Shown: piece after piece, positions 20,945 through 43,046 of the stretch | Layout of the letters: every line of letters starts with the position of its first letter | Position numbering within the stretch: the stretch's first letter is position 1 | DNA from: Promethearchaeota archaeon Loki_b32 | GTDB taxonomy: Archaea; Asgardarchaeota; Lokiarchaeia; Sigyniarchaeales; SOKP01 | NCBI GenBank assembly: GCA_005223125.1 | Contig: NJBH01000002.1 | Span: 96,001-160,000 of the forward strand | Direction: 5' to 3' | Length of the DNA: 64,000 bases | Notes under the pieces: generated by a model | The model's database searches: none | What the model was told of the DNA's origin: nothing | Seen by the model: the letters and a program-made list of their open reading frames with translations, nothing else | Made by a program: the position numbers and the translations under genes

Positions 20945-21652
20945 TTAATAGCAATTTGAAAATATTAAATCCATCTGCATATCTATGTAATTTTCATTCT
21001 GATATTCACACGCACTACAAATTAAGTGAGTTATAGTACTTAAATAATTTATAATATCCTCTAATTCATCTGAATATTTTACTTGATTAAAACTAGAAAC
21101 ATTTAGAAGGAGTTCTTCATATTTGCTTTGTGAAAATGAAGACTTCTGTTTTAATAATTGATTATGGATTGCCATATATTTCATTAACTCCAAATTTTTA
21201 TCAGATGGCTTCAAAATAAATATTGATTCTATTTGCATCCAAATATGAAATGCTAGCTCTTCTAATATCGATGAAAATGCATATCTTTGCTGAACTGCTT
21301 TTAAAAAGAACTCTCGATATAATGGATAAAGATCATCAATTCTACTGACTTTAAAATTTACTATATTATTAATTAAATGGTCTAAAATCCCGAGGATGTT
21401 ATCGTCAATTCCCTCTATAACTGGAGGACTTGAAAGAATGAGGCAACCCGTTTTTTTAGTCAAATGAACATGACCTAACTCATGAATTATATCATAATCT
21501 TTACCTGATTCATTGAGAATTAAAATATACGTCTCTTGTGCCTGATCAAACTTAATACTAGTCTTAGAAGAAGACATAATCAGATTAATATTTACATTAT
21601 TTATGGATAATAAGTCTTTGTAATTATTTACTTTTTGAATCCATTTTTCCAT
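20945..21652 (-). CDS. HEXXH zinc metallopeptidase-like protein
   Basis: DIIHELGHVHL; last gene of the long minus-strand cluster. Confidence 0.65.
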   Translation of the reverse strand: MEKWIQKVNNYKDLLSINNVNINLIMSSSKTSIKFDQAQETYILILNESGKDYDIIHELGHVHLTKKTGCLILSSPPVIEGIDDNILGILDHLINNIVNFKVSRIDDLYPLYREFFLKAVQQRYAFSSILEELAFHIWMQIESIFILKPSDKNLELMKYMAIHNQLLKQKSSFSQSKYEELLLNVSSFNQVKYSDELEDIINYLSTITHLICSACEYQNENYIDMQMDLIFSNCY

Positions 21653-21662
21653 AAATATAACC

Positions 21663-22586
21663 TCAAAGTTTATAAAAAATGATATTCTCTCCTTTAAATG
21701 CTATACCCAGACCAGAATTTAGATCTCGAATTCTATATTCTAAATTGTTTTTATCGAAAATAATCTGTTCAAGTTTAAATTTTAATGAATTTTGCACTAT
21801 CTTATATATTTTTTTTATTTTTGACTTAATAGCGGTTTCTCCTTTAATAATCTCTTTTTCTACCCGTTTTAGATTCTTAATTAAAATATTACAATAATTT
21901 TTATCTACTATATTATATTGCGTAATCACCATTCCACCTCCAGGACAAAAATAAGTAGTTCCATCATCCATAACGATGGGAGTATTTGTCCCCCCATTTC
22001 TCCATAATTCTCTATCACTGTCAGAGGTTTTTTCACATGAATTCATTCTAATTTTAAATCGTGCAATTAAACTTGGCCAATTTCTGTGAACAATATTTAT
22101 TATTTCCTTGTTTGTCCAATCTTTATGAGTTAAAATCTGTATAAAATAAAAATGATTCTCGTCGAACATTGCAAACAGTATTTCATTTTGACCCTTTGAA
22201 AGTCTTTTAAGACCTTTAAATCCTCCAAGATGTAAATGATATGTTCCCCATTCATTAAGTGTCACATCTGGAAAATCTAATTTCTTTAATTTTCTACTTA
22301 AAAAAGGAGTAAGGTCTTCTCCTTTTATAATTCTATTCTCTAAGTCTTTAAGATTATTTTCAAGTCCTTTTGGACAATTAAATTCTTTTGATTTTAAAAT
22401 AGTTCTAGGTTTAGACTCAATTAAACTCCGATTTAAGTTCATATAAAGAAGGCATAGTTCATCAACATTATCCAAGTTCTTAATTTTCTGCTCATATTTC
22501 ATTTCCTTAAGTCGTTTGCTATTTTCTCTTATCATAGCTTTTAAAATTTCTTTAAAATCCTTAAGTAAATTAATTTCTATCATCAT
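21663..22586 (-). CDS. Conserved hypothetical protein (possible nuclease/toxin)
   Basis: GEDLTPFLSR...LNEWGTYHLHL...ILFA..YFIQILTH..W..HRNWP conserved-looking block. Confidence 0.6.
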   Translation of the reverse strand: MMIEINLLKDFKEILKAMIRENSKRLKEMKYEQKIKNLDNVDELCLLYMNLNRSLIESKPRTILKSKEFNCPKGLENNLKDLENRIIKGEDLTPFLSRKLKKLDFPDVTLNEWGTYHLHLGGFKGLKRLSKGQNEILFAMFDENHFYFIQILTHKDWTNKEIINIVHRNWPSLIARFKIRMNSCEKTSDSDRELWRNGGTNTPIVMDDGTTYFCPGGGMVITQYNIVDKNYCNILIKNLKRVEKEIIKGETAIKSKIKKIYKIVQNSLKFKLEQIIFDKNNLEYRIRDLNSGLGIAFKGENIIFYKL

Positions 22587-22609
22587 TAAATCATTGCATT
22601 AAAAAATTT

Positions 22610-24028
22610 TTATAACTTTTCTAATTTCAAGCATTTCGAAGCCATGATCCCAATTAAACGAGTCAATTCTAATTCAAATCCTCTTGAAATATCTTCACAT
22701 CTACTGAGACAATGTCCTGTCTCATGAATTAAGGTCCCAAAATAATGCTCTAATTTTCGTAAAGTACTTCTTTTTATAATTATTGTTCCAGTAGATTCTT
22801 CCCAAAGTCCATCAACTTCTCTGAATGTATAAGGATCTTTTCTCATTGTCTCGGAAATCTTTATTTTTCTTACTCTTCTTGGTTTTCCACCAATAAGCTC
22901 GAAAATTTTATCTGTTAAATTATAGATTTTCTTTTCTGATTCATTTAACTCTTCATGATCTATGAACTTAAATTCAAAACTTTCATGATCTTCAATGATA
23001 AATTGATCGATATCTCTGATAACATTACCTGAAATATCTTTTAAATCATGAATTTTTTCTCTTAAGCTATCTGGGATTGTAACTATATTCATTCCTCTAG
23101 ATTTGGCATCATCTATCAGATGAAAAGAATTTTGGATTTCAGAAGAAGTAACAAAAATTGCATTTAATTTTGAGCTAAGAATGCTTACTGCATGCTTTTG
23201 AACATCAATCCAACTTAATTCGTCATGATTTGTCCCTTGCTCAATCTTTTGTAAGTCTTCCATTAGCATTTTTGCAATATTTTCACCCTTGCAAGATAAT
23301 AGTATTTTCATAATTCTATCCCGGTATGCATTTCTCCCTACATTAGTTCTCTCTCTGTTTAATGCTTTTCTTATTTGTTTTGTTAAAGATGTAATGTTAT
23401 AACTAAATAGAAAGTATTCCTCTTCTGCCACTTTAACTCCATTTATATAGATAAATGCTTTTTCTTTAGTATTTTTATAGACATCTCCATAATCCGTTGA
23501 TTCAACTAATTTTTCCCCTGAAAACCTTAAAAATAATGCTTTTGCATTTTCTATACTCTCCACAGTAATATCTCCTAATAGAACATCGGTACCGATTAAA
23601 TCTGGGTCTGATGGGTGCAAGATCACTGCATGTAAGGTGTCTATATCTTCGAATCCATGCTTTTCGGATGTTTCTATCGTGATATCTCCAAATTTTGATT
23701 TGAGTAAAACATATACGCCATTTCTATCAAAAGTTGCTAATGCGTCTTTTAGACCTATTCCAAATTTTCCAATTAAATTTGGGTTCTCTAATTTCTCTTG
23801 ATTTTCATTCTGAGTTAAGTGATCATATTTGAGACCTCTACCGAAATCTCTTATATGCCAAAACCCATCTTCATCTTGAAAGACTTGTATATCTTCTGTC
23901 CCTGTAATCTTCTGTTCATCTATTGCATTAGCGATGACTTCCCTGATACCATGATGAACTTCCCAATCCTCTAAAATCTTTTCTATATTTAAATCAAAAC
24001 TTCTTTTGTCTTTCATAATTCCTTTCAA
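22610..24028 (-). CDS. GHKL (HATPase) ATPase, MPN635-like, with C-terminal HEXXH
   Basis: IREVIANAIDE, IRDFGRG, IGKFGIGLKDA, GT; C-terminal LIHETGH. Confidence 0.82.
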   Translation of the reverse strand: MKGIMKDKRSFDLNIEKILEDWEVHHGIREVIANAIDEQKITGTEDIQVFQDEDGFWHIRDFGRGLKYDHLTQNENQEKLENPNLIGKFGIGLKDALATFDRNGVYVLLKSKFGDITIETSEKHGFEDIDTLHAVILHPSDPDLIGTDVLLGDITVESIENAKALFLRFSGEKLVESTDYGDVYKNTKEKAFIYINGVKVAEEEYFLFSYNITSLTKQIRKALNRERTNVGRNAYRDRIMKILLSCKGENIAKMLMEDLQKIEQGTNHDELSWIDVQKHAVSILSSKLNAIFVTSSEIQNSFHLIDDAKSRGMNIVTIPDSLREKIHDLKDISGNVIRDIDQFIIEDHESFEFKFIDHEELNESEKKIYNLTDKIFELIGGKPRRVRKIKISETMRKDPYTFREVDGLWEESTGTIIIKRSTLRKLEHYFGTLIHETGHCLSRCEDISRGFELELTRLIGIMASKCLKLEKL

Positions 24029-25464
24029 CCTTCTTTTTCCATTTCTTCTAAATGCTTTTTAATTTCTTCATCCCCTGGACTTAATTCATTTGCTTTTAAA
24101 TAAGCTTTTTTAGCTTTTTCTAGATCTCCATTGTATTCATAAGCAATCCCTAAATTATCCCATATCATTGCATCATCTGAATCTGTCTCTAAAGCTTTCC
24201 TATAATGATCAATTGCATTCTGATATTCATCTATACAAATATAAGCTAAGGCAATATTAACTAAAGCATCAATATCATCTGGAACCTGATCTAAGATATT
24301 TTTATAGATCTTAATAGACTCTTCAAAATTTTTTGTTTCATAGTACGATTCGGCTAGACTGTGAGCATCTTCAATTGTAAATCCATTAGGAGCATATCTT
24401 GCTCCTATTTGATATACACGAATCTCAGTTATTCCGTCCTTAATTTTTGTATAAAATGAGATGGTATCGATTTTTATAATTCGATGATTATAACCAATTA
24501 TCTCGGTCGGGACTCCTTCTGGAGATAGTTTTTCCATATTATATATTGGTTGAGAATCAATATAATGAAAAGTTATATCTTTTCTTGTATCATCCATCGA
24601 AATTCTAAAATTAACATCAAATTTCGTAATTTCATAATCAGAATAATTTAGAAATCCTTGGGGGCTCTGTGTTAGGAGATTTCCAATTAAGTCAGGAGTT
24701 AATTCAGGTAAAGTTTCTCCCTCATCAATTTTAACTTCCCTTCTATAAATAATAGATTTTGTAGGGGGGCGTTTTTCCCTCTCTACTTTAAAATTTTGAG
24801 TATAACTCTCATACTCATCAATATCGGTTTGTTGAGCATTAATTTTATCGTCTAACTCTAAGCTATAGAGTTCCTCAGAAAAACGAGATCTTGCTTCATC
24901 AATCCAATCTTCGTCTGATATTTCTTCTAAATGGAATAGATTAGCCTGTATTTCTCTCAAGATATAAGATTTAATAGCAACGTGAAAATCTGAATATTGA
25001 TCACTATTTCTTAATTCTAAAAAATATTTATATTTCTGCTGACCATTTAAGTTGTCCAGCTTTGGGGATAATTTTACACTAAACGACTTAACGATATCAT
25101 CAAACCAAGATTCGAATTTACTTACTCTATAAATCTTGAGTTCAATTTGATCTTTAGCTTTAGAGAAAAAAGAAGCAATATCCATTCTATGGATGTTTTT
25201 TGATATTTTGAACTCCTTTATTTTATTTGCTTCATTTATAATTGGTGTCTTATATTTAAAACTGAGTGTGAAATCCTTGCGAGTGTTTTTTAGAATCCCC
25301 CGGAAATTTAATGGAAAATTTTTCACTTCATATTTCATAGAAGTAGGCATTGAGTTAATCCCTCCTATAAGACCTCGTTCTTTCAGATATTCAATTATAT
25401 CCTCTATTGTTAATCTAGAAATCTCTTTTACTAACTCTTTATATAATAATTTTTTTACTGTCAA
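24025..25464 (-). CDS. TPR-repeat protein with an uncharacterised N-terminal region
   Basis: Three C-terminal TPRs (ALVNIALAY, IWDNLGIAY...AYLKANELSP); GAGGTG upstream of the TTG start. Confidence 0.82.
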   Translation of the reverse strand: MTVKKLLYKELVKEISRLTIEDIIEYLKERGLIGGINSMPTSMKYEVKNFPLNFRGILKNTRKDFTLSFKYKTPIINEANKIKEFKISKNIHRMDIASFFSKAKDQIELKIYRVSKFESWFDDIVKSFSVKLSPKLDNLNGQQKYKYFLELRNSDQYSDFHVAIKSYILREIQANLFHLEEISDEDWIDEARSRFSEELYSLELDDKINAQQTDIDEYESYTQNFKVEREKRPPTKSIIYRREVKIDEGETLPELTPDLIGNLLTQSPQGFLNYSDYEITKFDVNFRISMDDTRKDITFHYIDSQPIYNMEKLSPEGVPTEIIGYNHRIIKIDTISFYTKIKDGITEIRVYQIGARYAPNGFTIEDAHSLAESYYETKNFEESIKIYKNILDQVPDDIDALVNIALAYICIDEYQNAIDHYRKALETDSDDAMIWDNLGIAYEYNGDLEKAKKAYLKANELSPGDEEIKKHLEEMEKEG

Positions 25465-25473
25465 AATCTCACC

Positions 25474-26958
25474 TCATTTTCTTTTTTCTAAATTAAAATT
25501 ATATTCTAATATCTCATTATACCATTCTAATAAAAATTCTTGCTCAACTCTTCCATTGATTAGAATAAATTGAGCAAAATTATTTAATTCAGAAATCTCT
25601 GATTTAATAAATGCTTGTAAAGAATCGATTTGTCCAAGGGGTATCTCTCGATATGGAATGTGAAATTTTAATGGAATTCTTATTATTTTTATATTTTCAA
25701 ACCCTAATCTAGTGTAAATTTCTCTAAATATATTGCATCCTCCTAGGTCATAATCTAACCATACAAAATATTTAATTTCTGGATTATTTCTAATAATTTT
25801 TTTAAGAATTGACTTCCTAAAATGTCCAGAAATTCCCATTCCTTTAATAAAAATAAGTAATGCGTTATTCTCAGTAGCCCAATTATCTAATACCAGTTGA
25901 GCAAACACCGCGAGATTTTCGATAAGCAAAACTATATCTGCATTCAGCTCAATAGAATTAATATTACTATAAGATAAATTAGAAAATGAAACTGATGGTC
26001 CAGCAATCTTAATAGATTTTCCATTCTGCATTTTTAAAATTAATTCTCCAGAAAATGTAAATGAATCTAATGCCAGTATAAGACCAATATCTTCACAATT
26101 CTTACTCGAAAAGTTCTTTATAATGGAATTAATGTCATTTGAGTATTTATCAAGGACTTTAGAAGGATCTTCATTGAATGAGAGTTCTGATTCCTGAAAT
26201 GCTCTTGCTGATACTTCTCGTAATGTTAAATTGTCTCGATAAATTTGTAACCATGTACACAATCCGTATAAAATAATTAGAAATTTTGGAGGATTGGTTG
26301 CTGAGTTCTGAGGTTTAATTGAGGTTCCGTTATTCTTTATCCATTCAGGATTTCCTTCCTTTAATAATTCTAATTGAACATTTAATAAAGAAAAAATGAT
26401 TTTCTTGTTTGCCTCTAAATCATCTTTATTAAAGATATCTAATGTATTATTAATTTTTTCAATTCCAAGAGCTATTTGCTCTTCTACATTTAAGAATCCA
26501 GTTAATTCTTTCAGCTCTTGTTTTCCATCATCTGTTAAAGAATAATATATTTTTTCATTATTAGATGTTTGAATAACATCAATTCTTTTGAGGATTAACC
26601 CTTTTTGAATAAATCCTTCTGAGATTTCATCAAGATCTTGATTCTTATAATAATTCTTTAATTTCTTTTTCCAAATATTTTCATTGATTTTATCATCCCA
26701 TAGTACTGAGATAATTGATCTGAAGAACGCTAATTCATTTTCTTCGAAATTATAATTTTCAATTGGAATTGTGCAAGTAATTAGTTTTTTTTCTTTTCTA
26801 CGTTTTCCCCAAGTCATTTTATGTAGTGGACATTCTTTAATTTCGAAACTATGAATTACCTGATAAGGCCCCTCAGTTATTTCATATACTTTATTAACCC
26901 ATTCAAATGAATCTGAGGGACATTCGCAAGGTTTTTTCTTAATGCTCTCGGATGGCAT
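25474..26958 (-). CDS. jetD: Wadjet JetD-like Toprim (TopoVI-A-like) nuclease
   Basis: LREVSARAF..DPSKVLD; Toprim LIENLAVF, WLDYDLGG (DxD), VEQE; follows the SMC gene. Confidence 0.82.
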   Translation of the reverse strand: MPSESIKKKPCECPSDSFEWVNKVYEITEGPYQVIHSFEIKECPLHKMTWGKRRKEKKLITCTIPIENYNFEENELAFFRSIISVLWDDKINENIWKKKLKNYYKNQDLDEISEGFIQKGLILKRIDVIQTSNNEKIYYSLTDDGKQELKELTGFLNVEEQIALGIEKINNTLDIFNKDDLEANKKIIFSLLNVQLELLKEGNPEWIKNNGTSIKPQNSATNPPKFLIILYGLCTWLQIYRDNLTLREVSARAFQESELSFNEDPSKVLDKYSNDINSIIKNFSSKNCEDIGLILALDSFTFSGELILKMQNGKSIKIAGPSVSFSNLSYSNINSIELNADIVLLIENLAVFAQLVLDNWATENNALLIFIKGMGISGHFRKSILKKIIRNNPEIKYFVWLDYDLGGCNIFREIYTRLGFENIKIIRIPLKFHIPYREIPLGQIDSLQAFIKSEISELNNFAQFILINGRVEQEFLLEWYNEILEYNFNLEKRK

Positions 26959-29830
26959 CAGTTAAATCTCTTACTCGTTTTATTTCTTTATCAAAATTAA
27001 TTAATGTAATCTGAGATTCTTTATTTTGATTTTTCCAAATTTGAATAATATGGGGAAATATTCTTATATAACCGGGTGTAGGGGTATATGGAGATATGCA
27101 AATTAATTTTTTATTAGGTAAATGTTGCTCGATGACCCTTGCTAGAAGTTCCTTATGGTCATCAGCTATATTTTGATCAAACTCGTCCCATACCGAAAAT
27201 GGTGAAGGAGATTCGGCTAATATTGCGATCTCAAATGCTATAGAAGCTCTAAGTCTTTCACCTTTACTAAAATTCGCATATTCGATAGCATCTAATGACC
27301 CATCAATTGTATTTGAGACATTTATATTTAATTGATAATCTCCCTCAATTTCTGTTGGATTGAACTTTAATTCTCCATCTAAATTAAGCCCTCTCATTAC
27401 TGATCTGTAACGACGACTTACTATATCTTGCCATTTAATAAGCTTGTCTTTTAAATTATCAACAGCAATTAAAAATGTATTTTGGCATTCATTTTTTTCA
27501 TATTCATATTGTTGATTTAATTCTTCCAAAGTTTGAATATCTTTTTTAGAAACTTCATAAATTTTGACAATTGAGGAATCTATATCTTGATACTGATCAA
27601 GGGCTGATCTCGTCTCAATAATTCTTTTTTCTAATGCTTCTAATGTTTCAGAAGGTTTCTTGATTTTGTGTAAAATTGTCTTAGCTTCATTGGTTATCGC
27701 ACGATACTGAAAATTTTCATCAATAATATAGTTATCAACTATTGAAACTGTTTCTTGGTTATCCTCAATATTTTCCAAGAGAGTCCAATTCTCTACTAAA
27801 TTATTAAACGTATTTGCGGTGTTCGTTAAATCTTTTATTAATATAGTTAGTTTATTTATATTTTCATTAATAGAATTTTTTTTTTCTTCCCTAGTTTTTT
27901 TAAATCTTTCATTATCCTCTTTCAGACGCTCTATATTTTGTCTAGGAAATGAGAGTATAGAAATTAACTCATTTAATCTATTAGATAAATCTCCTTTTTT
28001 TTCTATAATTTCATCAATATCTTTCTCTTCTTCTCTCAATGCGAGATATTCTAATTTTTTATTTATTGTTTCTAGATTTTGCTGTCTTTCTGAAATTTCA
28101 GATTTAAAATCTCCCATTTGCTTCTTCAAATTTTCTATAAGCATAAATAATCGATTTTTTTCTTTCTCAGGTGCGCCTTCTCCTATCATGTAGGGGGTAT
28201 TGATAAAATGGAATTTTCTTTGAGAATAAATATTATAGGTGTACCCATCTTGGCAATAAATTCTAGAATAAGGGGCATCTTCTAAAAATAATTCCTTTTC
28301 TTCAAAAGTATTCGCGAAATAAAAATTATGCATCATTAAATTCATTAAATCTTCAATTGTTTCTGAAGGAAGTGATTGGGGGCACACTTCTAACAAGTCT
28401 GACCAATCTCGTAATCCTTTTTTTCCCTTTAATACATAATTTTTTCGAGGACTTAAAATAATTGCATCTGATTTTAAATCTCTATTGATTTTTTCAGCAA
28501 TCCTGCCGTGTTTTTCATCAACAACTATACCTGTTTTATATGAAGCTAAAATATTTTCAATATATTCTTGCCATCTTTCAGTTCCTTGTTTAAAATCCAA
28601 AGTCTCATATAATAATTCAGAGTTGATATCTCTTTGTTTTAAGGCATTTTGAACCTTGAAGATATCAGAAGGAATATCAAATTTCTTTTGTTCTAATTCT
28701 TTTAATTTTTTATTATACTCGCGATATTCTCTTTGGATAATTACCAAGTTTGCCTTTATTTCATCTAACTTTTGTTCTTTTTGCTCTTTTTCTTCTTGAA
28801 TGAATAATTGATCAGATATCTCTGAAAGTTCTATATTAAGATTTTGTAAATATGAGATAACAACTTCGTATTTATCTTTATAATTTCTTATCTCATATTC
28901 CATATCATAGACTTCTTGTTGTACTTTATCCTTCTCTTCTTTTTGGGATTGGAATTTTTCTTCTATATTAGTGATTTTAGTTTTATTGTTTTTTATCTCA
29001 TTTCTTAATCTTTCAATATCTTCCTTTAACTTTTCATTCTCTTCATAAATACTTATAAAATCTTTTTGGTTATCATCAAAACTATTAAATGTAAAATGGA
29101 TTTTTGCTTTAAGTTCCTTTATTTGAAGTTCTGCCAAATACCTCTCAAACTCAACCTTTTTTTGATATCTTTTGTAAGTTGCTTCAATATTTTGGAATTT
29201 TATATAAAACTCCCTTAATTTATCATTTGCTTCATCTAATTTCTTGTCAGCCTCATCAAGCTCATTTCTTGTTATTTTAACCTTTTCTTTATAATCTTCG
29301 ATTCCAATAAATTTTGAAACTGCATTATATCGTTCTTTCGGCGATTTTTGAGTCCATATTGCGGTCTGTTGATCATCAATAAAAATAAGAGGGTCTTTCC
29401 ATTCTCCGAAATTTTTTAACTCTTCTTTAGTAATTTTTTTTTCCTCTCCTTTAATTCTTATATAACGTCTATTCCTCTTTTTCTTACCTTTAAAGGCCTC
29501 AAGACCTATAGTTATTTCTTCGTCAATTGGATAGATATTTAGGGCATCTGGGCCTGTATTTAATACAGCTAATTCAATTTTAGCATGATTCTTATAGACT
29601 TTACTTTTAGTACCCCCTTCTTCAATTTCCTCATAAGTAAAAAATTCATTATCTCGTTCAATTTTTCTTCCTAAAACATACTGTACTGCATTAAGGATGT
29701 GTGACTTACCTGAACCGCTACTTCCAGTAACATAGCAACGATCACTGAGATCTCCGAAGGAAATAATCGTATTTTTATGACTTCCAAAATTTTGTAAAAA
29801 TAATTGTTTTAGTATAGGATAACTACCCAT
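26939..29830 (-). CDS. jetC: Wadjet JetC/MksB-like SMC ATPase
   Basis: Walker A GSSGSGKS, long coiled coils, hinge-like ELLYETL..WQEYIENIL, signature FSKGE, Walker B VWDEFD. Confidence 0.82.
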   Translation of the reverse strand: MGSYPILKQLFLQNFGSHKNTIISFGDLSDRCYVTGSSGSGKSHILNAVQYVLGRKIERDNEFFTYEEIEEGGTKSKVYKNHAKIELAVLNTGPDALNIYPIDEEITIGLEAFKGKKKRNRRYIRIKGEEKKITKEELKNFGEWKDPLIFIDDQQTAIWTQKSPKERYNAVSKFIGIEDYKEKVKITRNELDEADKKLDEANDKLREFYIKFQNIEATYKRYQKKVEFERYLAELQIKELKAKIHFTFNSFDDNQKDFISIYEENEKLKEDIERLRNEIKNNKTKITNIEEKFQSQKEEKDKVQQEVYDMEYEIRNYKDKYEVVISYLQNLNIELSEISDQLFIQEEKEQKEQKLDEIKANLVIIQREYREYNKKLKELEQKKFDIPSDIFKVQNALKQRDINSELLYETLDFKQGTERWQEYIENILASYKTGIVVDEKHGRIAEKINRDLKSDAIILSPRKNYVLKGKKGLRDWSDLLEVCPQSLPSETIEDLMNLMMHNFYFANTFEEKELFLEDAPYSRIYCQDGYTYNIYSQRKFHFINTPYMIGEGAPEKEKNRLFMLIENLKKQMGDFKSEISERQQNLETINKKLEYLALREEEKDIDEIIEKKGDLSNRLNELISILSFPRQNIERLKEDNERFKKTREEKKNSINENINKLTILIKDLTNTANTFNNLVENWTLLENIEDNQETVSIVDNYIIDENFQYRAITNEAKTILHKIKKPSETLEALEKRIIETRSALDQYQDIDSSIVKIYEVSKKDIQTLEELNQQYEYEKNECQNTFLIAVDNLKDKLIKWQDIVSRRYRSVMRGLNLDGELKFNPTEIEGDYQLNINVSNTIDGSLDAIEYANFSKGERLRASIAFEIAILAESPSPFSVWDEFDQNIADDHKELLARVIEQHLPNKKLICISPYTPTPGYIRIFPHIIQIWKNQNKESQITLINFDKEIKRVRDLTDAIREH

Positions 29831-31910: not shown

Positions 31911-34598
31911 TCAATAGAATTCTTGAACTTTGGACACATTATCAATTATATTTACTTCAAACAATGTATCGGCGATATCTTCTAATTCATTATGATGAGT
32001 AACGACAATTAACTGGGGAATTATATGACTTTCTTTCTTAAAATCTTTCATAGCCTCAACCAATTCTTTTCGCCTTTCTTTGTCTAAATGGGTTGTTGGC
32101 TCATCCATAATAACTGTGGATATTTGACTTGAAAGTAGCCTTGCAATCGCAAGTCGTAATATGATTGCTATAGCAACTTTTTCACCACCACTTACTGAAT
32201 TAATTGAAAGTTTGCCTGTACGCCCAATAATCGTAATATCAAGATCCTCATCAATAGAAATATCTGTAATATTGATATTAAAAGCATCTAAATATTCTTT
32301 TGCGAATTCAGTAATTTTGGGAGCAAATATTTTTCTTATTGCTTTTTGTAATCCGTCTTTAGAAAAGGCAGCTCTAATTTTTAATAAAAATTTGTTAAAA
32401 TTTCGAATTTTGTCAAATTCTTTTAATTTTTCCTTAAATTCTTGAATATTTTGCTCCTTTTCTTTTAATTGAGTTTCTTGGTTTTTTATTTGTTTAATAA
32501 GTAATTTCTTATTACTCTTTTTTGTATTTACGCTATCTTTAATTTCATTATATTCATTCATAGCATTCTCATAGTCTTCTTTCGTATATACTAATTCTTT
32601 TATCTTTTCATTAGTATCTTTTAAATTTTTCTTTAAAATTTCTAATTCTTTATTATTTTTATCCAAATCTTGTTTATATTCTTCTAACTTTTCACTTTTG
32701 ACTATATACCCATCACATTTTTCTTTTATATTTCTAAGATGTTTTAATTCTTTTTCGGGGTCTTTTGGTTTTTCTTTAAAATTCTTAAGAACTGACGTAA
32801 TCGAAGATTCTATTTTATTTAAATCTGATTGTAAAATTTGAAGATGATTTTTTATTTCATTTACATCTCGCTTTTCACTTTTTAAAGCTTCTGCTGCTGC
32901 TTTATATAAAATGAATTTTTTCTTTATTAATTTCATTTGCTTTTTATTATCTTCAACAATTTTTTCCAATTCGGATTTTTCTGATAATTTAATTTGTTCT
33001 TGTTTTACCTTTTCTTCCAAACCACTTATTTTTGACTGTAGATTATTAAGTTTTTTCTCAAGTTCATGATAGCGGTCCAGGTCTAATTTTTTAATTTCTT
33101 CAAGTCTATTCGTTAACTTGGACTCCTCCTCATCTAGTCTTTGTTTTTGTTTGTCATTTTTTTTTAATTGTTCTTTTTTATTGGCACTTTCTTCACTAAA
33201 ATTATTAATTACCTTATTCCGATGATCTTCGGTTAAATCACTTGAACAGACTGGACATTTTGTACTCTCTCCGAGGATCTTTAAATATTCATCAATTTCT
33301 TCAATCCTTCCTTTCATCTTACCTGAAAGATCTATTAAATTTCTAACCTTATTGTTGATATCGTTAACATTTTTTTCTAATTTTTGGATTAATTTCTGTT
33401 TCTCGGAGATATCTACTTTTGGTAAGTATTTTAGAGTATTTTTTTCGATCTTAATTATTTCTTCTTGAAATTCCTTAATATTTTCGTTATAGTTCTTTAT
33501 ATCTGCATTGAATTTTGCTACTTGAATTTCAATTTCATTATATATCTTTAACTCTTTTTGTTCTTCTTCGACTTTCTTTTCAGTTTCTTGGTATTGTATA
33601 TAGAATTCCTTATTTGCCTCTTTTTTATCATGCCATCCCTCTACTCTATCGAGATCATTAGTATTAGTCTTTATATCATTCTCTTTATTTTTTTTTTTAT
33701 TTAATAAATCAATATAGCTCTCATAATGCTCAATATTTTTTATCTGTGGTCGAAGTTTTTTTGCTTCTTCTTTAGCACTTCTGGCTTCATCCACTTGTTT
33801 TGCTAACTTTTCGACCATTTTATTTACCGAAGAGATTTTTTCATTAAGTTCTGTCTGTTCATTGGTCATCTTTTCATTGTCTTCACGCTTTGTTTCCCAT
33901 AACTCTTTTTTCTTTAAGGCTTTTTTTAACGATTCTTCTTCTATTTTTATTTCCTCATCAATCTTTGAGACATTATCTTTGAGTTCTTTAATGCTTAACT
34001 CCAACTTGTCTTTAGCTTCTTGATGATCTTCTAATTTAGCCTGAATTACATCATAATCTTTTAATTTATCTTCAAAGGCATCTATAACAGCTTTCATATT
34101 ATCATAAGCTTTTTTCAACTTATCTATTTCTAATAATTTGGCCATCACTTCTTTTCGTTCTGCAGGTCTTCCATCAATTAAATTCGTAATTTCTCCCTGC
34201 CTAATAAAAATTGAATTGATAATCGCATCTTTATCCATTCCTAAAATTTTAGCAATTTCTTCACTTACCCCAGTCTGTTTTGTTGCTTTTGAGATACCAT
34301 TTTCTCTAATTACTGCATAAGGTCCGCTGTCTGTTTCTCTTCTTCTGACTACTTCATAATCATTTCCATTATGCTCAAAAATTAATTTTACTTCTGCATT
34401 ATTAGTACCTTTTCTGATAAGATCATCAATATTATCCCCTCTAACGTGTTCGCCACAAATTGAATAATAAATCCCATCGATAATTGAGGATTTCCCGGAA
34501 CCATTTTCTCCTCGAAAGACCGAAACCCCTCTTGGAAAATCAAATTTAGTATCTTTATGAGAAATAAAATTCTTTAATTCAATTCTTTTCAATATCAT
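31911..34598 (-). CDS. rad50: Rad50/SbcC ATPase
   Basis: GENGSGKS, IRQGEI, zinc hook CPVC, VSGGE, MDEPT, VVTH. Confidence 0.93.
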   Translation of the reverse strand: MILKRIELKNFISHKDTKFDFPRGVSVFRGENGSGKSSIIDGIYYSICGEHVRGDNIDDLIRKGTNNAEVKLIFEHNGNDYEVVRRRETDSGPYAVIRENGISKATKQTGVSEEIAKILGMDKDAIINSIFIRQGEITNLIDGRPAERKEVMAKLLEIDKLKKAYDNMKAVIDAFEDKLKDYDVIQAKLEDHQEAKDKLELSIKELKDNVSKIDEEIKIEEESLKKALKKKELWETKREDNEKMTNEQTELNEKISSVNKMVEKLAKQVDEARSAKEEAKKLRPQIKNIEHYESYIDLLNKKKNKENDIKTNTNDLDRVEGWHDKKEANKEFYIQYQETEKKVEEEQKELKIYNEIEIQVAKFNADIKNYNENIKEFQEEIIKIEKNTLKYLPKVDISEKQKLIQKLEKNVNDINNKVRNLIDLSGKMKGRIEEIDEYLKILGESTKCPVCSSDLTEDHRNKVINNFSEESANKKEQLKKNDKQKQRLDEEESKLTNRLEEIKKLDLDRYHELEKKLNNLQSKISGLEEKVKQEQIKLSEKSELEKIVEDNKKQMKLIKKKFILYKAAAEALKSEKRDVNEIKNHLQILQSDLNKIESSITSVLKNFKEKPKDPEKELKHLRNIKEKCDGYIVKSEKLEEYKQDLDKNNKELEILKKNLKDTNEKIKELVYTKEDYENAMNEYNEIKDSVNTKKSNKKLLIKQIKNQETQLKEKEQNIQEFKEKLKEFDKIRNFNKFLLKIRAAFSKDGLQKAIRKIFAPKITEFAKEYLDAFNINITDISIDEDLDITIIGRTGKLSINSVSGGEKVAIAIILRLAIARLLSSQISTVIMDEPTTHLDKERRKELVEAMKDFKKESHIIPQLIVVTHHNELEDIADTLFEVNIIDNVSKVQEFY

Positions 34599-35700
34599 CT
34601 TCGATAAATTCCTCCTTAAAATATTTATTCGCTAAATTTATAGCTGAATCTTTATTTCCATTCGAAAGATCATCATAAAGACCTTTTGCAAATTGTCCCA
34701 TATTTTCATTCTCAAAATGCTCCACAAAAATTGCTTGAAGATCATAGTTATCTTTTGAAATTTTAATCTCTTTTGACTTTTTTTCACTAAACCTTATTTT
34801 ATGATATATGACTTTATCCTTCAATAATTTCTCAACGTTCTGCTGAATAAGTGCTCTATCTAAATCCTTTCCGTATATTTTAAGATTAACTACTGGTTTA
34901 TTTTCTTTTTCCAGATATTTTGGCAGGTCATTGACCTCTGATGCTTCTAATTCAAGTCTTAATTGTGGTCGGATATCTAATGGTATGAATTCATATTCAA
35001 TATTCCCATCTTCAATATCTACTATATAAAAACCTTTCCCTTTCTTCTGCCAAGTTGTAACCTCATCTTGCTTTTTAATCTCTGTTGCCCCGCTATATAC
35101 TAAGTAGCCCTCTCCGAATTTTAAGACATTAGTTGCATGAATATGTCCTAATGCATAATAACTTGCTTTTTTTGGTAAATCATCTAAAGTTAATTGATAT
35201 ACTCCCTTAAAAGGTAAATATTTTTTAATTGCTTGGTGAAGAATTAAGACAGAATTTTTAGAATTTTCGGCTATCTTATCAAATTTTTTCAATTCTTTCT
35301 TTAAATGCTCTTTATTCATAGTCCTTAGATTTGATATTCCTGCAAATAGTACATCCTTAATTTTTATTGATTCTAAAGTAAAGCTTTTCCCTAGTATCTG
35401 AATGTTAAATAATTCATGTGGTATTTTAGCTTTTCTTTTAGGTATATCATGTTCTCCTAAGACAGTCAAAAACTTAATTTTACCATTTAATTTATCTATC
35501 CCTTCTTTAAAACTGAGAAGTGCTTTTATAGGAGGATGATAATTATCAAATAGATCACCCGCATGAATTATAACATCCACTCGTTCTTCTAAGCATTTAT
35601 CTATAACTTGATGAAATGCATCATAAAAATCCTGTTCTCGTATATCCAGATTATATTGCTTATATCCTAAGTGGGTGTCTGATACGTGAGCTATTCTCAT
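34579..35700 (-). CDS. mre11: Mre11/SbcD nuclease
   Basis: SDTHLG, AGDLFD, LGEHD, LHQ, ALGHIH phosphoesterase motifs. Confidence 0.93.
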   Translation of the reverse strand: MRIAHVSDTHLGYKQYNLDIREQDFYDAFHQVIDKCLEERVDVIIHAGDLFDNYHPPIKALLSFKEGIDKLNGKIKFLTVLGEHDIPKRKAKIPHELFNIQILGKSFTLESIKIKDVLFAGISNLRTMNKEHLKKELKKFDKIAENSKNSVLILHQAIKKYLPFKGVYQLTLDDLPKKASYYALGHIHATNVLKFGEGYLVYSGATEIKKQDEVTTWQKKGKGFYIVDIEDGNIEYEFIPLDIRPQLRLELEASEVNDLPKYLEKENKPVVNLKIYGKDLDRALIQQNVEKLLKDKVIYHKIRFSEKKSKEIKISKDNYDLQAIFVEHFENENMGQFAKGLYDDLSNGNKDSAINLANKYFKEEFIEDDIEKN

Positions 35701-35706
35701 ACTTTT

Positions 35707-37353
35707 TCACTCCAGCATACCTCTTGTATCTTCTAAATCTTGTCGTAGATCTTCTTCTCTTCGCTGTTCTTCATTATCAACATATTCACGGGCTTCGTTT
35801 AACATACCTAATAGATCTAAATCTGCTCCCCCTTCTTGAGTATTTCGTCTTCTTACTTTAACCATAACGGGGGCTCTTGTCAAATTACCAACAACTACAG
35901 CTTCTCCAATGTTTAATCCCGGTAAATCACTTAACAGATCTTCACTTAATTTTTCAGAACTTCTCTTAATTGCGGTTTGATCTTCTGCATTGGTTATTTT
36001 TAAAATCATTTGGCTATTGCATTGACTTAATGCATCCTGGTCCACTTTATAAGGTCTCTGAGTTATTAATGCCTGAAAGACTCCAAATTTCCTACCCTCA
36101 GCTGCAATTTCTTTTACTATATCTATTGAATATCCACCGCCTCTTCTCCCAGGTTTATTAGGTAAAAAACGATGAGCTTCTTCAATAAATACAAAGACGG
36201 GAAAATGATATTCATCACTTCTTCTTTGATCATATATTTCATTAAGTATTCGTGAAGCTATATAGTCTGCTACATAATCTGGGATTCCAGATAAATCAAT
36301 TACAGAAACATGCTTTGGACGTATAATATCACAGACAGGGGTTGTTGTATCGGCAAAAATTTGTAATCTGTGCATTCTTCTTACATATCTCAATGCATTG
36401 CGGGAATCATTTGTATCTGCATTAGTTAATTCATTAATTAGATCATCTAAATTATAACCCGTAGCAGAATCTAGATTCGCTAAAGCACTTTCTATTGCTG
36501 TTCTAATTCGAGTAAATCTTTCAGGAATACCACAGATATTAAATATTTCAAATGCATCTAAATCAGCAAAACGAATTGAATATTGTTCGATTTCCCTTCC
36601 AACATCAGCATCAGTATATATTCCTGTACTATTAGGTGTCTGAAATACTCCCATTCGATTAATTGTTTCAATTTCATCTTGCCTTCCTTCGTCATTTTGT
36701 TCGCCTTCTTCTAAATTTTCTTCACTTTCTTCTTCTAATTGATTTCCCAATAATACATAATCCGCATGCGGATCAATGATAACAATTGTAGCTCCTTTTT
36801 TGTATAATTCTTCAACAAGAACTCCTCCCAAGTAACTTTTTCCACCTCCAGTCTGAGCCAATATTGAGATATGTCTTTGAAAACCTTTTATAGATATATA
36901 AACAGGTACATCTGAACGTGTAATTAAATGTCCAATATATAATCCTTCTTCTTCGGGATATGAATAAAATTCAGCTAAAAGGTCATTTGAAGCTAAATAA
37001 ACAGGATTACCCGGTTTTATTGCCCTTCTTGGCTGAAAGATATTTCCATTATGTAAATATCCTAGAACTCGTGCTTTAGCAAAGCATCGAGCATCAGCTA
37101 ATCCCGCACTTATAATTTTTTCAGCATCTTCCATTTTCAGATCGGCGACAAGTGCACGAGAATCCGCAAATACTTCAAATATTTGAGCAATAATACTTAC
37201 GTCAGTTTCTCGCATTATTCCTGCAATATTTATTAGTTCTTTCGAATGTATAGCGACATATTCTAATCTATTAATATCTTTATTAGTCGAAAAATAAAAT
37301 TCGGAAGTATTAACTTCTCCAACTATTATTCCTATTTTAGGGATACCTGACAC
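35707..37353 (-). CDS. herA: HerA bipolar DNA helicase/translocase
   Basis: N-terminal HAS barrel, Walker A AQTGGGKS, IIDPHADY, IEEAHRF, EGRKFG, TQRP. Confidence 0.92.
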   Translation of the reverse strand: MSGIPKIGIIVGEVNTSEFYFSTNKDINRLEYVAIHSKELINIAGIMRETDVSIIAQIFEVFADSRALVADLKMEDAEKIISAGLADARCFAKARVLGYLHNGNIFQPRRAIKPGNPVYLASNDLLAEFYSYPEEEGLYIGHLITRSDVPVYISIKGFQRHISILAQTGGGKSYLGGVLVEELYKKGATIVIIDPHADYVLLGNQLEEESEENLEEGEQNDEGRQDEIETINRMGVFQTPNSTGIYTDADVGREIEQYSIRFADLDAFEIFNICGIPERFTRIRTAIESALANLDSATGYNLDDLINELTNADTNDSRNALRYVRRMHRLQIFADTTTPVCDIIRPKHVSVIDLSGIPDYVADYIASRILNEIYDQRRSDEYHFPVFVFIEEAHRFLPNKPGRRGGGYSIDIVKEIAAEGRKFGVFQALITQRPYKVDQDALSQCNSQMILKITNAEDQTAIKRSSEKLSEDLLSDLPGLNIGEAVVVGNLTRAPVMVKVRRRNTQEGGADLDLLGMLNEAREYVDNEEQRREEDLRQDLEDTRGMLE

Positions 37354-38599
37354 GTCTATAACCTCTTGGTGTTGCTTTTTTTCCTATAATTTCTTCAAAT
37401 TTTTTTAAATATAATTCTTTAAAATCTACTCGTGATAATTTTACTTCATTATCCACGGCTGTAAGCCATATATTATAATTTTCCAACCCGCAATATCCCG
37501 CTGAAATTAATTTTAATACTTCATTTAAATCAATGTCTATCAATTTTGGCCATCCAATATCTAATAGTCTTTTATTAATACCAAAATACCATGCAGGTAT
37601 ATCTATTCGCATTGGAGTATCAATTCGAGTTGGTAAAATATGAAATGATATGATTGCTGGAAAGTCCAGCATCTCAAAAATAATTTTTTGAGCGTGCTTA
37701 ATAAAATCTGGATCTTCAGATAACGTTGGGAAATTAGATTCAATAAATTGTCTAAAATTTGTTCTTATTAATTTTTCCGCTCGTCGCCATCTGGTGCTAG
37801 CACCTAATAATAATGGTTTAGTATATCCAGAATCCTTTGCGTTACTAAGAATTAATAAAGAATCGGGTTTCCTTGCGATTAATTCTTCGGTCAACAAGAT
37901 AATATCTTTATCTCTTATTGATTTTGCTAATTTGAATGCATTTTTTGGTCTATCCAACGCTTCTGAAAGAAGTCTTTTTCTCAATTTTTTATCTGAAATT
38001 TTCTCTTTTAAGATCTCCTTTATTAAGAATTCTCTATAAAAAGAGGTTCTACTCTCTTTACTAATCCCTATAAGTAAAATTCCCTTTTCTTTACATAATT
38101 TTAATAATTTTAAATAAATTTCAAAATAATCTAGGATAAATCCCTTATTATTTTCCAGTTTAAGTTCCAATGGTAAGTGAACCATTCTACCATAAAGAGA
38201 ACCATCAATTAATAATATACCTTCAAATTGTTTTTCAATAGCTTGAATTCCTGCTAAATGTTCCGTCCATTCCATTACTCTTCCAATAAAAGTTGATTGA
38301 GTCATAATATTAGAGAAGTCAAAATCCGTAAAAATGGTTCTATACTTATTTTTCTTACCTAATGCTAAAGCACGACAGACAAAAAAGAAGCCTCCATTTG
38401 ATGTTGGACATCTCCCTCGACTACTATCTATTGCTATGACATCTTGTTCAGGGATACAGGAGTCTAATTGATAATTTATCCAATGAGCTTTAAATTTATT
38501 TTCATAAAATTTATTAATTTTTTTGTCCTCAAAATTTTCTAAAATCCTCTTAGATTTAGTATTTAAATCTACGATGAATTCTGTTAGAAATTCTGGCAT
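37337..38599 (-). CDS. nurA: NurA 5'-3' nuclease
   Basis: IAIDSS, LLIDGSL, GISKES, YNIWLTAVDNEVKL; overlaps herA by 17 bp. Confidence 0.88.
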   Translation of the reverse strand: MPEFLTEFIVDLNTKSKRILENFEDKKINKFYENKFKAHWINYQLDSCIPEQDVIAIDSSRGRCPTSNGGFFFVCRALALGKKNKYRTIFTDFDFSNIMTQSTFIGRVMEWTEHLAGIQAIEKQFEGILLIDGSLYGRMVHLPLELKLENNKGFILDYFEIYLKLLKLCKEKGILLIGISKESRTSFYREFLIKEILKEKISDKKLRKRLLSEALDRPKNAFKLAKSIRDKDIILLTEELIARKPDSLLILSNAKDSGYTKPLLLGASTRWRRAEKLIRTNFRQFIESNFPTLSEDPDFIKHAQKIIFEMLDFPAIISFHILPTRIDTPMRIDIPAWYFGINKRLLDIGWPKLIDIDLNEVLKLISAGYCGLENYNIWLTAVDNEVKLSRVDFKELYLKKFEEIIGKKATPRGYRRVRYP

Positions 38600-38791
38600 T
38601 TTATTATTATATTTTACATTTTTTTCAAATTTTTTGTCTTTAATATAAAGAATACAAATTCAATATTATTTAAATCTTAAAGCTTAATCTGTTAACTTTT
38701 CTTTGCCAAAACGGAATTTTTCCTTTTATATTTTTTTGATTAATGCCTCTTAAGGCTTTTTAGATTCAAATGAGCAATGCTTTTCTATTTT

Positions 38792-40270
38792 TTACATATA
38801 ATTGCTATATGCTGTAGGAGGTGTAATATCTCTACCTTTCAATTCTCCCATTATTTTTCCTACTTTTTTTGATACTGAGAGTGTAACGGGCATTCTTTTA
38901 CAAAAATCTGTGCTATTCCAGTCTAATTTTGTTAAATTGATTATATCTCTTGCTAATATTTCAGTATCACTATCACTTTTTTCTACAATTACTTCAATAG
39001 GTTTTGGTATCATACTACCTGGATATGTATCAAGACAAGGAATGTAACCAGTTGTATAAAGATTAAAGACTTTTTTATTATTGGAATTTCTTTCAAATAC
39101 AGAACCACGAGCTATAGGATAATCTGTTGAGGTAATTGCATTAAAATGACAATATTCTTTAATATGAATAAAATCTTGGATTTCAATATTTTTTGTTGAT
39201 TTTAAAAATCCTTCATTTTCTTCCTCAGTATATTCCGATTTTTTATGTACAACAATTCTATTAGGCTTACTATTATGGTGTTGTCTTTTATATAAGTTAA
39301 TAGCTTGGGACAAAATATCTTTTGCTTGTTCTTCTGTAAGATTGGTTCTTCTAATATCTTCTTCATGTTCAACTTTTAATTCTAAACCTCTAGCCACTTG
39401 AGAGTCACCAGTCCTCATATAGACCTGAGCTATAGCAGCTTTAATAACTACACTATCTCTTTTATTAATATCATAGTAAAATGAAATTCCAACATGAACA
39501 GTTTCAGGATTTAAATCAGCTAATTTCCAGGGAATACCTGAAAATTTATAATATTGGGCAACAACATAGTTCCAAGCAATTGAAGCAGGATCTTCCAAAT
39601 TCCCTCCTTTGAATTCCAATGTTTGAGGAAGCATTAATTGTGTTCGCAAATTCAACTCATATCCTAGAACTTTTATATAATTATGGAAATCATAAAATAT
39701 TGGACGTTCACTTTGATCCATTGAAGCTATTCTCTGTAAATCTCGAAAATTCCGATCGCTTAGTCGGATTTTCTTATCTTTTGTAAATGGATCTGAACAA
39801 GCTTCTAGAATTTTTTTAGGAATAGTAATAATAATAACAGGTCTTGGAAGATTTTGCCCACTCAAATCTTTCAGAATCTGCTTTATATGTTCTGAAAATT
39901 CAACAATTCTTTCATTTCGGTTAGCAATATTAAGAATTTTTTCAATATTTTGTGAAGAAATTTCTTGACAATAATTATCATCTTTCTCCATATAAAATCC
40001 TAACGGACCATCTTGATATAATCCTGGAAAATCAAGATTTCTTATATTTGAATTAGGATATGTCACACCTTCTATTGAATATTGTAATAAAGAAAGAAAA
40101 TCAATTGCCGCATTAATTGATTTTTTCGATCCAATTATTCCTATAGGAATTCTTAAATTATTATGTTCCAATCCATTTGGTTTATAATTTAATAATCCTA
40201 CTCTTGGATCAGCACATGTAGTTTTATCTCTGAAAATTAAATCCGGTTCTGGCACTAAAAACGATCTCAT
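38792..40270 (-). CDS. ago: Short prokaryotic Argonaute (MID-PIWI, catalytically inactive)
   Basis: EPDLIF..DPRVGL start; MID DFHNYIK...TQL...AWN..VAQYYK.SGIPW; PIWI VGISF, VVHKKS, LTKLDWN, PVTL; ends YSNYM; DEDX tetrad absent. Confidence 0.93.
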   Translation of the reverse strand: MRSFLVPEPDLIFRDKTTCADPRVGLLNYKPNGLEHNNLRIPIGIIGSKKSINAAIDFLSLLQYSIEGVTYPNSNIRNLDFPGLYQDGPLGFYMEKDDNYCQEISSQNIEKILNIANRNERIVEFSEHIKQILKDLSGQNLPRPVIIITIPKKILEACSDPFTKDKKIRLSDRNFRDLQRIASMDQSERPIFYDFHNYIKVLGYELNLRTQLMLPQTLEFKGGNLEDPASIAWNYVVAQYYKFSGIPWKLADLNPETVHVGISFYYDINKRDSVVIKAAIAQVYMRTGDSQVARGLELKVEHEEDIRRTNLTEEQAKDILSQAINLYKRQHHNSKPNRIVVHKKSEYTEEENEGFLKSTKNIEIQDFIHIKEYCHFNAITSTDYPIARGSVFERNSNNKKVFNLYTTGYIPCLDTYPGSMIPKPIEVIVEKSDSDTEILARDIINLTKLDWNSTDFCKRMPVTLSVSKKVGKIMGELKGRDITPPTAYSNYM

Positions 40271-40285
40271 TTTTTATCTCCTCTT

Positions 40286-41707
40286 TTAATTAAAAAATTT
40301 ATCTATTCTTGTATCATTAACTCCGATTGTTTTAGAGCTCCAATTGACTGTATGCTCCATCAAGGGCTTTATTATAAATTCATTAAACCAGGGATCTTTA
40401 TCTCGGCTAAAATAATCACTAGTTAAGAAATCGCTCCAAAATTCTAACCTAAGTCTCCAACTTGGATTTCTATTCCATTTTGGATTCAAATACTTTTTAT
40501 GTAGATTACTTGAATGGTCTCCTGTTATCGTATTTACACCATTTCTAGTAAAAATAAATCTAGGCCAAATAAATAAACCCATTTTACCATCATATTCATC
40601 TAATCGAATGAAAACAGATTTATGCTCAACATAATACAGTGTTCCATCTGGGCTATAAATTGGTTTAGTTACTGTTTTAATTTTTCTATTGGGTAGATTA
40701 ATTTTAATTGGTTCTACACTGCCCTTTGGTTTATCATCAATAGGTTCGTCATAAGCAAAGAAAAAATCACTCTCCCATCTTCTTAAACCTTTACACCACA
40801 AATATCTTCGTAATGATGTATAAAGTAATTCCCTTTTCCTCTGAATATCAAGCCTATCTGTATCATGGTCATATACTGGTCCTGAAATATGGGGTCTAAG
40901 AACATTCAGATTCTTCTCAAATGACCTTACAACTGGTTCAGGTGCTTCAAATCGTGGAACAACAAATTCAGGTAACCTTTGCTTTTCTTCAGATCTAACT
41001 CTGTCAATTATAGTCTTTTTAAGTTTGAATTTGGATTTAACTTGCCAAAATTTTTGCGGATATTGTAATTCCATAAAATTTAATATAAGATTGTCCTTTT
41101 CTCTCGTTGGATCTCTTCGATTCTTAATTTCTCTTAACAATCTTTTATGCTGTGAATTTAGATTTTTTCTAAAAATATCTTCTCTATCTCTTACTCGTTC
41201 GACTAAACCAAGTAGGGAACAAACCTTTACATCAGTATTTCTAAAAAACTCTAAAATTTCTGATTCATTAGCGGAATTTAACTTTTCTACTTTTTTCTCA
41301 TCAAAATTTAATCCTTCCTTATTATTAAACCAATTTAAAATTTCTTCCTTTTCTGCTTCCCTTGTTAATACTTTTTTAGTCTGATTTTTTTTATTAAATT
41401 TATTCGCAAAAATTACAAATCTAAATCTTCTTTCAGGTCTTAAAATTAACCAATAATAGAAATAGTCAAATATTTCGTGTCTAAGATTTTCAGATTTAGC
41501 AAAAATCGAGACTTGAGTATTTTTAGCTTCTATCCATAAATTTTCTTTCTTATTATCCATGATAATATCAGATAAAGTCCCCTCATTTAAGGAATTCTTA
41601 GTTAAATGATAACCTTGAGTTTGATAATACCTTATAATGTATTTTTTATATAATTCTGAATTATAATTACGAGCTTCTCTCTCTGATTCAAAATCTTCCC
41701 ATGACAT
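40286..41707 (-). CDS. PD-(D/E)XK nuclease-APAZ partner of the short pAgo (SPARDA-like)
   Basis: N-terminal LSDIIM...WIEAKN; C-terminal APAZ-like VEHKSV...IWPRFIFTRNG...RNPSWRLRLEFWSDFL; 15 bp upstream of ago. Confidence 0.8.
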   Translation of the reverse strand: MSWEDFESEREARNYNSELYKKYIIRYYQTQGYHLTKNSLNEGTLSDIIMDNKKENLWIEAKNTQVSIFAKSENLRHEIFDYFYYWLILRPERRFRFVIFANKFNKKNQTKKVLTREAEKEEILNWFNNKEGLNFDEKKVEKLNSANESEILEFFRNTDVKVCSLLGLVERVRDREDIFRKNLNSQHKRLLREIKNRRDPTREKDNLILNFMELQYPQKFWQVKSKFKLKKTIIDRVRSEEKQRLPEFVVPRFEAPEPVVRSFEKNLNVLRPHISGPVYDHDTDRLDIQRKRELLYTSLRRYLWCKGLRRWESDFFFAYDEPIDDKPKGSVEPIKINLPNRKIKTVTKPIYSPDGTLYYVEHKSVFIRLDEYDGKMGLFIWPRFIFTRNGVNTITGDHSSNLHKKYLNPKWNRNPSWRLRLEFWSDFLTSDYFSRDKDPWFNEFIIKPLMEHTVNWSSKTIGVNDTRIDKFFN

Positions 41708-43033: not shown

Positions 43034-43046
43034 TAAGTGAAACAAC

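Follow-up and report, generated by a model that had tools for sequence, protein, structure and literature searches.

The locus described here lies on contig NJBH01000002.1 of Promethearchaeota archaeon Loki_b32 (genome G000; 4.1 Mb, 30% G+C), within a stretch of 64,000 nt that we refer to as the window and whose positions serve as coordinates (G, C and L numbers denote genomes, contigs and loci). It brings together a short prokaryotic Argonaute (pAgo), a NurA-HerA-Mre11-Rad50 machine for DNA-end resection and a Wadjet-like SMC operon. As an earlier note on this DNA had described, 14 consecutive open reading frames (ORFs) occupy the minus strand at 20945-41707, and the distances between them, counted from the nuclease-APAZ gene, are 15, 192, -17, 6, -20, 52, -1, -8, -20, 9, -4, 23 and 10 bp. 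Profile searches and, for JetA and JetB, structure models bore out the gene labels proposed in that note, apart from a 'hypothetical' gene at 21663-22586, which encodes the defence protein PD-T4-7. The border drawn at 41707 had to be moved, as the unit reaches a divergent gene pair at 41906-43847 that also marks related islands. The first of these plus-strand genes (41906-43033) encodes an AAA+/winged helix-turn-helix protein that is weakly Orc1/Cdc6-like (TIGR02928, E 3e-5), and the second (43047-43847) a hypothetical protein whose homologues in relatives (35-87% identical) immediately follow the AAA gene. Homologues of the AAA gene were found in 6 of 54 genomes of the genus, and it stands divergent to an Argonaute gene or its remnant in G220, G018, G201, G038, G218 and L138. 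No CRISPR-like or attachment-site (att) repeats were found between 11 and 56 kb of the window, and a promoter and terminator scan with sigma-70 models, which are unsuited to an archaeon, remained at chance level. One RNA sequencing run contributed just short low-complexity pieces, which speak neither for nor against co-transcription.

The Argonaute module starts with a gene for a PD-(D/E)xK nuclease-APAZ effector (40286-41707, minus strand, as are all cluster genes below), which matched the PADLOC model Aga_REase_Archaea (E 7e-25) and APAZ-region models (E 2e-8) and carries D47 and E-A-K at 60-62 as a D...ExK motif. After 15 bp follows the short pAgo gene (38792-40270; PADLOC pAgo_I, E 2e-115). 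Its MID-PIWI product of 492 residues aligned over its full length with solved short pAgos (E 1e-45 to 1e-34) and shows GISF and HKK at two positions of the catalytic tetrad, indicating that the tetrad is replaced. The absence of N and PAZ domains and of a tetrad, together with the adjacent effector-APAZ gene, places the pair among the SPARDA-like short pAgos. In NbaSPARDA the short pAgo uses an RNA guide, senses single-stranded DNA (ssDNA) and engages a collateral nuclease (bioRxiv 10.1101/2023.06.08.544223), and by analogy the window's pair would use an RNA guide, recognise ssDNA targets and cleave collaterally. G032 and L138 each contain the same pair, 83-85% identical and followed by unrelated genes on the opposite strand; in G032 the contig stops 0.6 kb past the short pAgo gene. 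A gene related to HFX_2341 (CARF/Csa3-like) precedes the G032 pair (L039:10684-11520).

DNA ends are the substrate of all four resection proteins, Mre11-Rad50 binding them and HerA-NurA carrying out the resection. The window encodes the complete set: NurA (37337-38599; PF09376 above cut-off, both acidic motifs), HerA (35707-37353; DUF87 E 4e-36, Walker A and EEAH intact), the metallophosphoesterase Mre11 (34579-35700; NF041031 E 2e-73, which is under the equivalog cut-off, with DxH, GEH and GHxH motifs) and Rad50 (31911-34598; Rad50_zn_hook above cut-off, with Walker A, CPVC and SGGE). The nuclease and ATPase motifs are thus intact and the zinc hook is present. A second herA/mre11/rad50 cluster is located on contig C58 of G000, and its Mre11 is found at 71-86% identity in 18 of 36 genomes of the genus; the window operon is therefore an accessory copy. 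The C58 cluster (L040:2886-11606) reads uvrD, herA, a 331-residue possible nurA, mre11 and a short rad50 (687 residues), and it was detected in no more than half of the genomes covered by the search within the genus. The window-type operon was detected in 1 of 53 other genomes of the genus, and none of 36 genus genomes had a close orthologue of its NurA; the NurA of G220 is 70% identical. Its relatives are scattered, one of them being in a metagenome-assembled genome labelled Methanomicrobia, which is not the distribution of a vertically inherited core copy. We therefore rejected the window operon as the housekeeping repair copy, based on the second cluster and the rarity in the genus. Further Mre11 copies are present not only in G000 but also in G018, G201 and G218. 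In G018, Mre11 and Rad50 are fused into a protein of ~1200 residues, and two such cassettes are present in this one genome (L131:10077-13682 and L156; contigs C64 and C8).

Downstream of rad50, the Wadjet-like operon encodes a JetA/MukF-type kleisin (30494-31858; model with a predicted local distance difference test score (pLDDT) of 72, top Foldseek matches JetA 8q72 and MukF, E ~5e-4), a KITE protein in the JetB position (29823-30494; pLDDT 79, top matches Nse1/3, ScpB and JetB at weak E-values of 1e-3 to 1e-2), an SMC ATPase in the JetC position (26939-29830; SMC_N above cut-off) and a JetD-type Toprim nuclease extended N-terminally by a Cys/His-containing region (25474-26958; PF09983 24.5 bits against a cut-off of 22). 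This order of kleisin, KITE, SMC and Toprim nuclease is the same in relatives, and E347 and the DYDLGG motif (DxD) at 404 of JetD are conserved among the Toprim-type relatives. Sequence searches, including PADLOC, gave no matches for JetA and JetB and weak, partial ones for JetC, so that the subunits are not assigned by the JetA, JetB and JetC models of the described Wadjet types I-III. When the SMC was searched as a profile against the PDB, yeast Smc6 topped the full-length chains, and canonical Smc and Smc6 scored over JetC; no solved JetC or MukB was retrieved, with no JetC among the top 60. Head-only searches were split: the N-terminal head scored 42.8 bits with Smc6 and 41 with Rad50, the C-terminal head 36.5 bits with archaeal Smc, 31.5 with Smc5 and 22.9 with Smc6. 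The module has the gene order, fold and catalytic residues of Wadjet, yet it fits no described type. Cleavage of small circular DNA by JetABCD of the window would follow from the known family. The system is rare: of 400 genomes searched in the phylum, 5 contained it, and 22 kleisin relatives were found in 1.8 billion proteins. A canonical Smc with ScpB is encoded elsewhere in G000, and therefore the window SMC is accessory too. Some JetD relatives keep the N-terminal region and carry a HEPN-like domain (RxxxxH) instead of Toprim (L057:5869-7257, L067:14934-16319). Another, in G257 (L072:12400-14364), has a kinase domain in place of Toprim, with its N-terminus in another frame, and in L079 (1517-3241) a kinase-form relative lies divergently upstream of jetA. 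This exchange of Toprim, HEPN and kinase effectors can be likened to Lamassu.

The earlier note had suggested a search for recurrent synteny, and this showed that the adjacency of the modules is not a one-off. An Argonaute gene is found just upstream of nurA-herA-mre11-rad50 in five genomes: a short one in G000 and long ones in G220, G018, G201 and G038. G220, which belongs to the same genus, contains an orthologous operon (NurA 70%, HerA 62% identical) behind the same divergent AAA/hypothetical pair, with a long pAgo upstream and a BREX system downstream. Between its long pAgo and nurA lies a gene for 1388 residues (L107:7218-11846, contig C30), flanked by a near-perfect duplication of 144 bp that covers the spacer and the nurA start; this gene was therefore inserted into a direct pAgo-nurA junction. 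The C-terminal part of the 1388-residue protein resembles an ORF near the G032 short pAgo. When 154 genomes of the order were searched blind, three intact long pAgos belonging to this clade came to light (in G220, G018 and G201), each of them ahead of resection genes. In G018 the long pAgo is followed by a weakly detected NurA, HerA and the fused Mre11-Rad50, and in G201 by a further operon type and then OLD and UvrD genes. The long pAgo relatives have D, E, D and Q at the presumed tetrad positions, as judged by position only. In G038, a member of another family, a gap-broken gene lies 91 bp upstream of nurA. Its N-terminal part shows PAZ/Argonaute features and its C-terminal part a weak pAgo match in PADLOC, so that its assignment is based on this weak match, Atlas features and motifs; pairwise BLAST gave no link between the C-terminal piece and the G220 pAgo, and the Pfam Piwi model missed it. 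A gene in the Argonaute slot of G022 was rejected as an Argonaute, having no Piwi or pAgo match. Other pAgos (in G044, in G020 and on contig C39 of G220) had no resection neighbours in the surrounding DNA examined. The comparison of gene trees, also proposed in the earlier note, revealed incongruence: the Argonaute-linked HerAs were rejected as a single clade (approximately unbiased test, p-AU 9e-5), and the pairing has therefore been re-formed. The simplest history would be one in which this slot of the window first held a long pAgo, for which a short-pAgo block was later substituted.

The second pairing joins the SMC operon to a resection operon in eight loci, namely the window, G038, G218, G048, L050, L053, L051 (partial) and L078 (divergent), and accounts for four of the five genomes with the SMC operon among the 400 searched. 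SMC operons that are not beside resection genes are those of L073, L076, L081, L082, L062, L064, L057, L067, L079 and G257, some of these with little flanking sequence. A single clade supported at 100/100 unites the SMCs of the window, L050, L051, L053 and G218, and the HerAs beside four of its members cannot be one clade (p-AU 3e-146), so that this pairing, too, must have been re-formed; one type of resection operon accompanies two distant SMCs (G218 and G048). A resection neighbour was seen for 8 of 12 Toprim-type JetD genes versus none of three HEPN or kinase types, a weak difference (p 0.08) from a small count, which fits the idea that resection matters solely after a DNA cut. Hypergeometric tests of SMC/resection co-occurrence gave P 1.5e-5 when eight accessory operons in 154 genomes were assumed and 0.016 for 40, and carry no weight here, given the biased discovery and the relatedness of the genomes. 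In one operon type, a conserved gene of 233-249 residues always separates rad50 from jetA (L053:9281-9997, L070:15869-16585, L051:433-1134 and L105:16583-17332). Upstream of jetA in L062, L064, L073, L076 and L082, which contain SMC operons without a resection operon, CARF/Csa3-like (HFX_2341) regulator genes were observed. Outside G000, all three modules are found together in a single genome, G038, which comes from a different family and has a different class of Argonaute, and only there is the whole order repeated, from the AAA pair through Argonaute, resection genes and jetABCD to the GHKL and TPR genes.

Together these findings indicate that the locus is more than a chance neighbourhood and that it represents two recurring pairings rather than a single three-part system. 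The reading we favour, at about an even chance, is that of a modular defence island, in which a mobile accessory resection operon is the common DNA processor of interchangeable defence systems. Its upstream slot would be taken by an Argonaute, long in relatives and short with its nuclease-APAZ partner here, and its downstream slot by a DNA-cutting system, the Wadjet-like SMC here and BREX or OLD-UvrD elsewhere. The resection machine may then play the role of RecBCD/AddAB for its neighbours, destroying invader DNA after the first cut and supplying the long pAgos with small DNA guides. The note's analogy with guide feeding by RecBCD suits the long pAgos of the relatives better than the window's short pAgo, whose studied relatives are RNA-guided and for which resection could at most expose ssDNA targets. 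Each link would be optional and pairwise, without an obligate three-step relay. Going further, we tentatively suggest, as a possibility of clearly less than even probability, that in Lokiarchaeia a dedicated mobile NurA-HerA-Mre11-Rad50 operon is the archaeal counterpart of RecBCD/AddAB in immunity, making Argonaute guides or ssDNA targets and finishing DNA cut by an Asgard-type Wadjet with a Smc/Smc6-like motor and exchangeable effectors, the full chain being present in the window and in G038. Several points weigh against the modular island. The case for functional coupling between the modules is a genomic one; defence genes tend to cluster in any event, and homologous AAA-pair flanks can bring any cassette into the slot. 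Numbers are low, related genomes do not count as independent cases, and SMC loci were the route by which one module type was discovered. Related resection operons have neither Argonaute nor Wadjet in G056, G277, L047 and L048, at least four Toprim-type SMC loci are without a resection operon, the short pAgo pair has no resection neighbours in either of its other two loci, and the 192-bp gap between ago and nurA has room for a promoter of its own.

The structure of the island itself bears on the strongest rival explanation. The window is a mosaic of sharp-ended blocks that are found separately at 73-91% nucleotide identity. The block 38791-43869, which ends at the pAgo stop, matches L138 at 84% identity, the block 25479-31874 matches L050, also at 84%, and the region of nurA and herA is 69-73% identical to its counterpart in G220. 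A strain at ~97-99% identity (run X1, one study) kept the pAgo-nurA junction on one contig, and on another contig 24063 is joined to 31900, skipping jetABCD and the TPR gene. All this could be expected of independent systems that merely share an integration hotspot, without functional contact, with the flanks and island dynamics explaining their recurrence. The exchange of the downstream slot for BREX (G220) or OLD-UvrD (G201), the nearby PD-T4-7 and restriction-modification genes, and the short pAgo without a resection operon point in the same direction. A hotspot would not, however, readily account for direct same-strand Argonaute-nurA and rad50-jetA junctions that were re-formed with non-orthologous operons, for the placement of all three intact long pAgos from the blind search, or for the contrast with other island genes, whose positions are not fixed. 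We regard this explanation as rather unlikely.

The last four genes of the cluster are island cargo. They encode a TPR protein (24025-25464; TPR families), which is missing together with jetABCD in the close strain, a GHKL ATPase with a C-terminal HEXXH motif (22610-24028; GHKL motifs, HETGH, weak sacsin and GyrB matches), of which a 52% identical homologue follows jetD in G038, the PD-T4-7 protein (PADLOC E 3e-33 over residues 6-260, most of the protein), which is independent cargo, and a HEXXH protein that is weakly IrrE/M78-like (20945-21652; HELGH, PF06114 E 0.025). The low-GC left edge of the island contains a TumE-like toxin gene (15680-16051) and a truncated tyrosine-integrase fragment (16714-17160). 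In the low-GC right flank, a DprA/SLOG gene overlaps a phosphoribosyltransferase-like gene (45318-47010), a pairing typical of conflict islands. Further on lie a tRNA-Ala(GGC) gene followed by a LAGLIDADG-like ORF (50434-51555), a HerA-like ATPase fused to a C-terminal double-stranded-RNA-binding motif, probably Hef-like and outside the cluster (51964-53586), and a protein with parallel beta-helix-like repeats of 23 residues (69 nt), an ordinary surface-protein type (53796-55511). No att duplicate of the tRNA-Ala end was found, and no relatives of the SMC or HerA were found in viral contigs.

It is conceivable that the spare resection operon serves the host, either by repairing chromosomal breaks caused by neighbouring nucleases or by promoting island recombination or transfer, as with HerA-NurA in Thermus transjugation. 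The four proteins resemble canonical archaeal repair proteins with intact motifs, the Argonaute-linked Mre11 of G220 is the only Mre11 found there by a general model, the island is highly recombinant and holds the integrase remnant, and a HerA-like DNA donor ATPase is reported from Thermus (PMC5365140). Still, other Mre11 copies exist in G000, G018, G201 and G218, the general model used on G220 misses divergent Mre11s, and no att repeat marks the tRNA-Ala gene, which makes a host role improbable. More improbable still is the relay that the earlier note had put forward, if taken as an obligate sequence of JetD cut, resection and short-pAgo suicide inherited as one fixed system, since tight same-strand packing and the repetition of the gene order in G038 are outweighed by the mosaic structure, the incongruent gene trees, the presence of all three modules in just two genomes with differing Argonaute classes, the close strain without the Wadjet block and the short pAgo pair without resection genes.

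The compact Ago-nurA-herA-mre11-rad50 operons make two matters directly testable: the source of guides where RecBCD/AddAB is absent, stated as open in PMC12094033, and the function of Asgard NurAs, which are experimentally uncharacterised (PMC13748450). The locus further points to a candidate for what breaks down plasmids in archaea once Wadjet has cut them, and the rare Wadjet lineage, with its Smc/Smc6-like SMC and Toprim, HEPN or kinase effector, is relevant to SMC-based immunity among the archaeal kin of eukaryotes. In agreement with the earlier note, which knew of no system with this architecture, a literature search covering mostly titles and abstracts and little subscription literature retrieved no such description, no paper on Wadjet with HerA, NurA and Mre11, and none on a pAgo with HerA-NurA.

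Each part of the locus is nonetheless of a known kind. DdmDE is presumably comparable in that a helicase motor was recruited into composite immunity. The BRC HerA/FtsK 'capture' systems (PMC12839542) likewise employ a HerA motor in composite immunity with Orc1/Cdc6-like ATPases nearby, but no NurA, Mre11, Argonaute or Wadjet appears in that work. SPARDA (bioRxiv 10.1101/2023.06.08.544223) shares with the window a nuclease-APAZ gene placed immediately ahead of an inactive MID-PIWI pAgo; in contrast, the window effector fits an archaeal REase model, and its sequence led to no solved relative, and for SPARDA no link to HerA/NurA or RecBCD has been described, RecBCD being unmentioned in that study. 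Long pAgos such as CbAgo obtain DNA guides from RecBCD/AddAB processing (bioRxiv 10.1101/2020.03.01.971358), and both CbAgo and the operonic APACE1 (PMC12094033) resemble our locus in that an Argonaute works with DNA-end-processing or co-encoded nucleases; in the window, however, the partner is an adjacent accessory copy of the archaeal NurA-HerA-Mre11-Rad50 machine, and the pAgo is short. HerA-NurA with Mre11-Rad50 produces 3′ ssDNA tails (PMC13748450), and the window operon has the same four genes, intact motifs and Rad50 zinc hook as this archaeal operon, but is accessory, patchy, mobile and set in a defence context. Smc5/6-related archaeal SMCs have been described (PMC8665677; bioRxiv 10.1101/2024.01.07.573240); with its split head-only scores, the window SMC may or may not belong with them. 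Finally, Wadjet JetABCD/MksBEFG, which extrudes and cuts small circular but not linear DNA (PMC10586767), is matched in gene order, in the JetA/MukF-like kleisin fold and in the Toprim E and DxD residues, whereas the window SMC scores canonical Smc and Smc6 above any solved JetC or MukB, its JetD has the extra N-terminal Cys/His region, with relatives swapping Toprim for HEPN or kinase domains, and this SMC operon often adjoins a resection operon.

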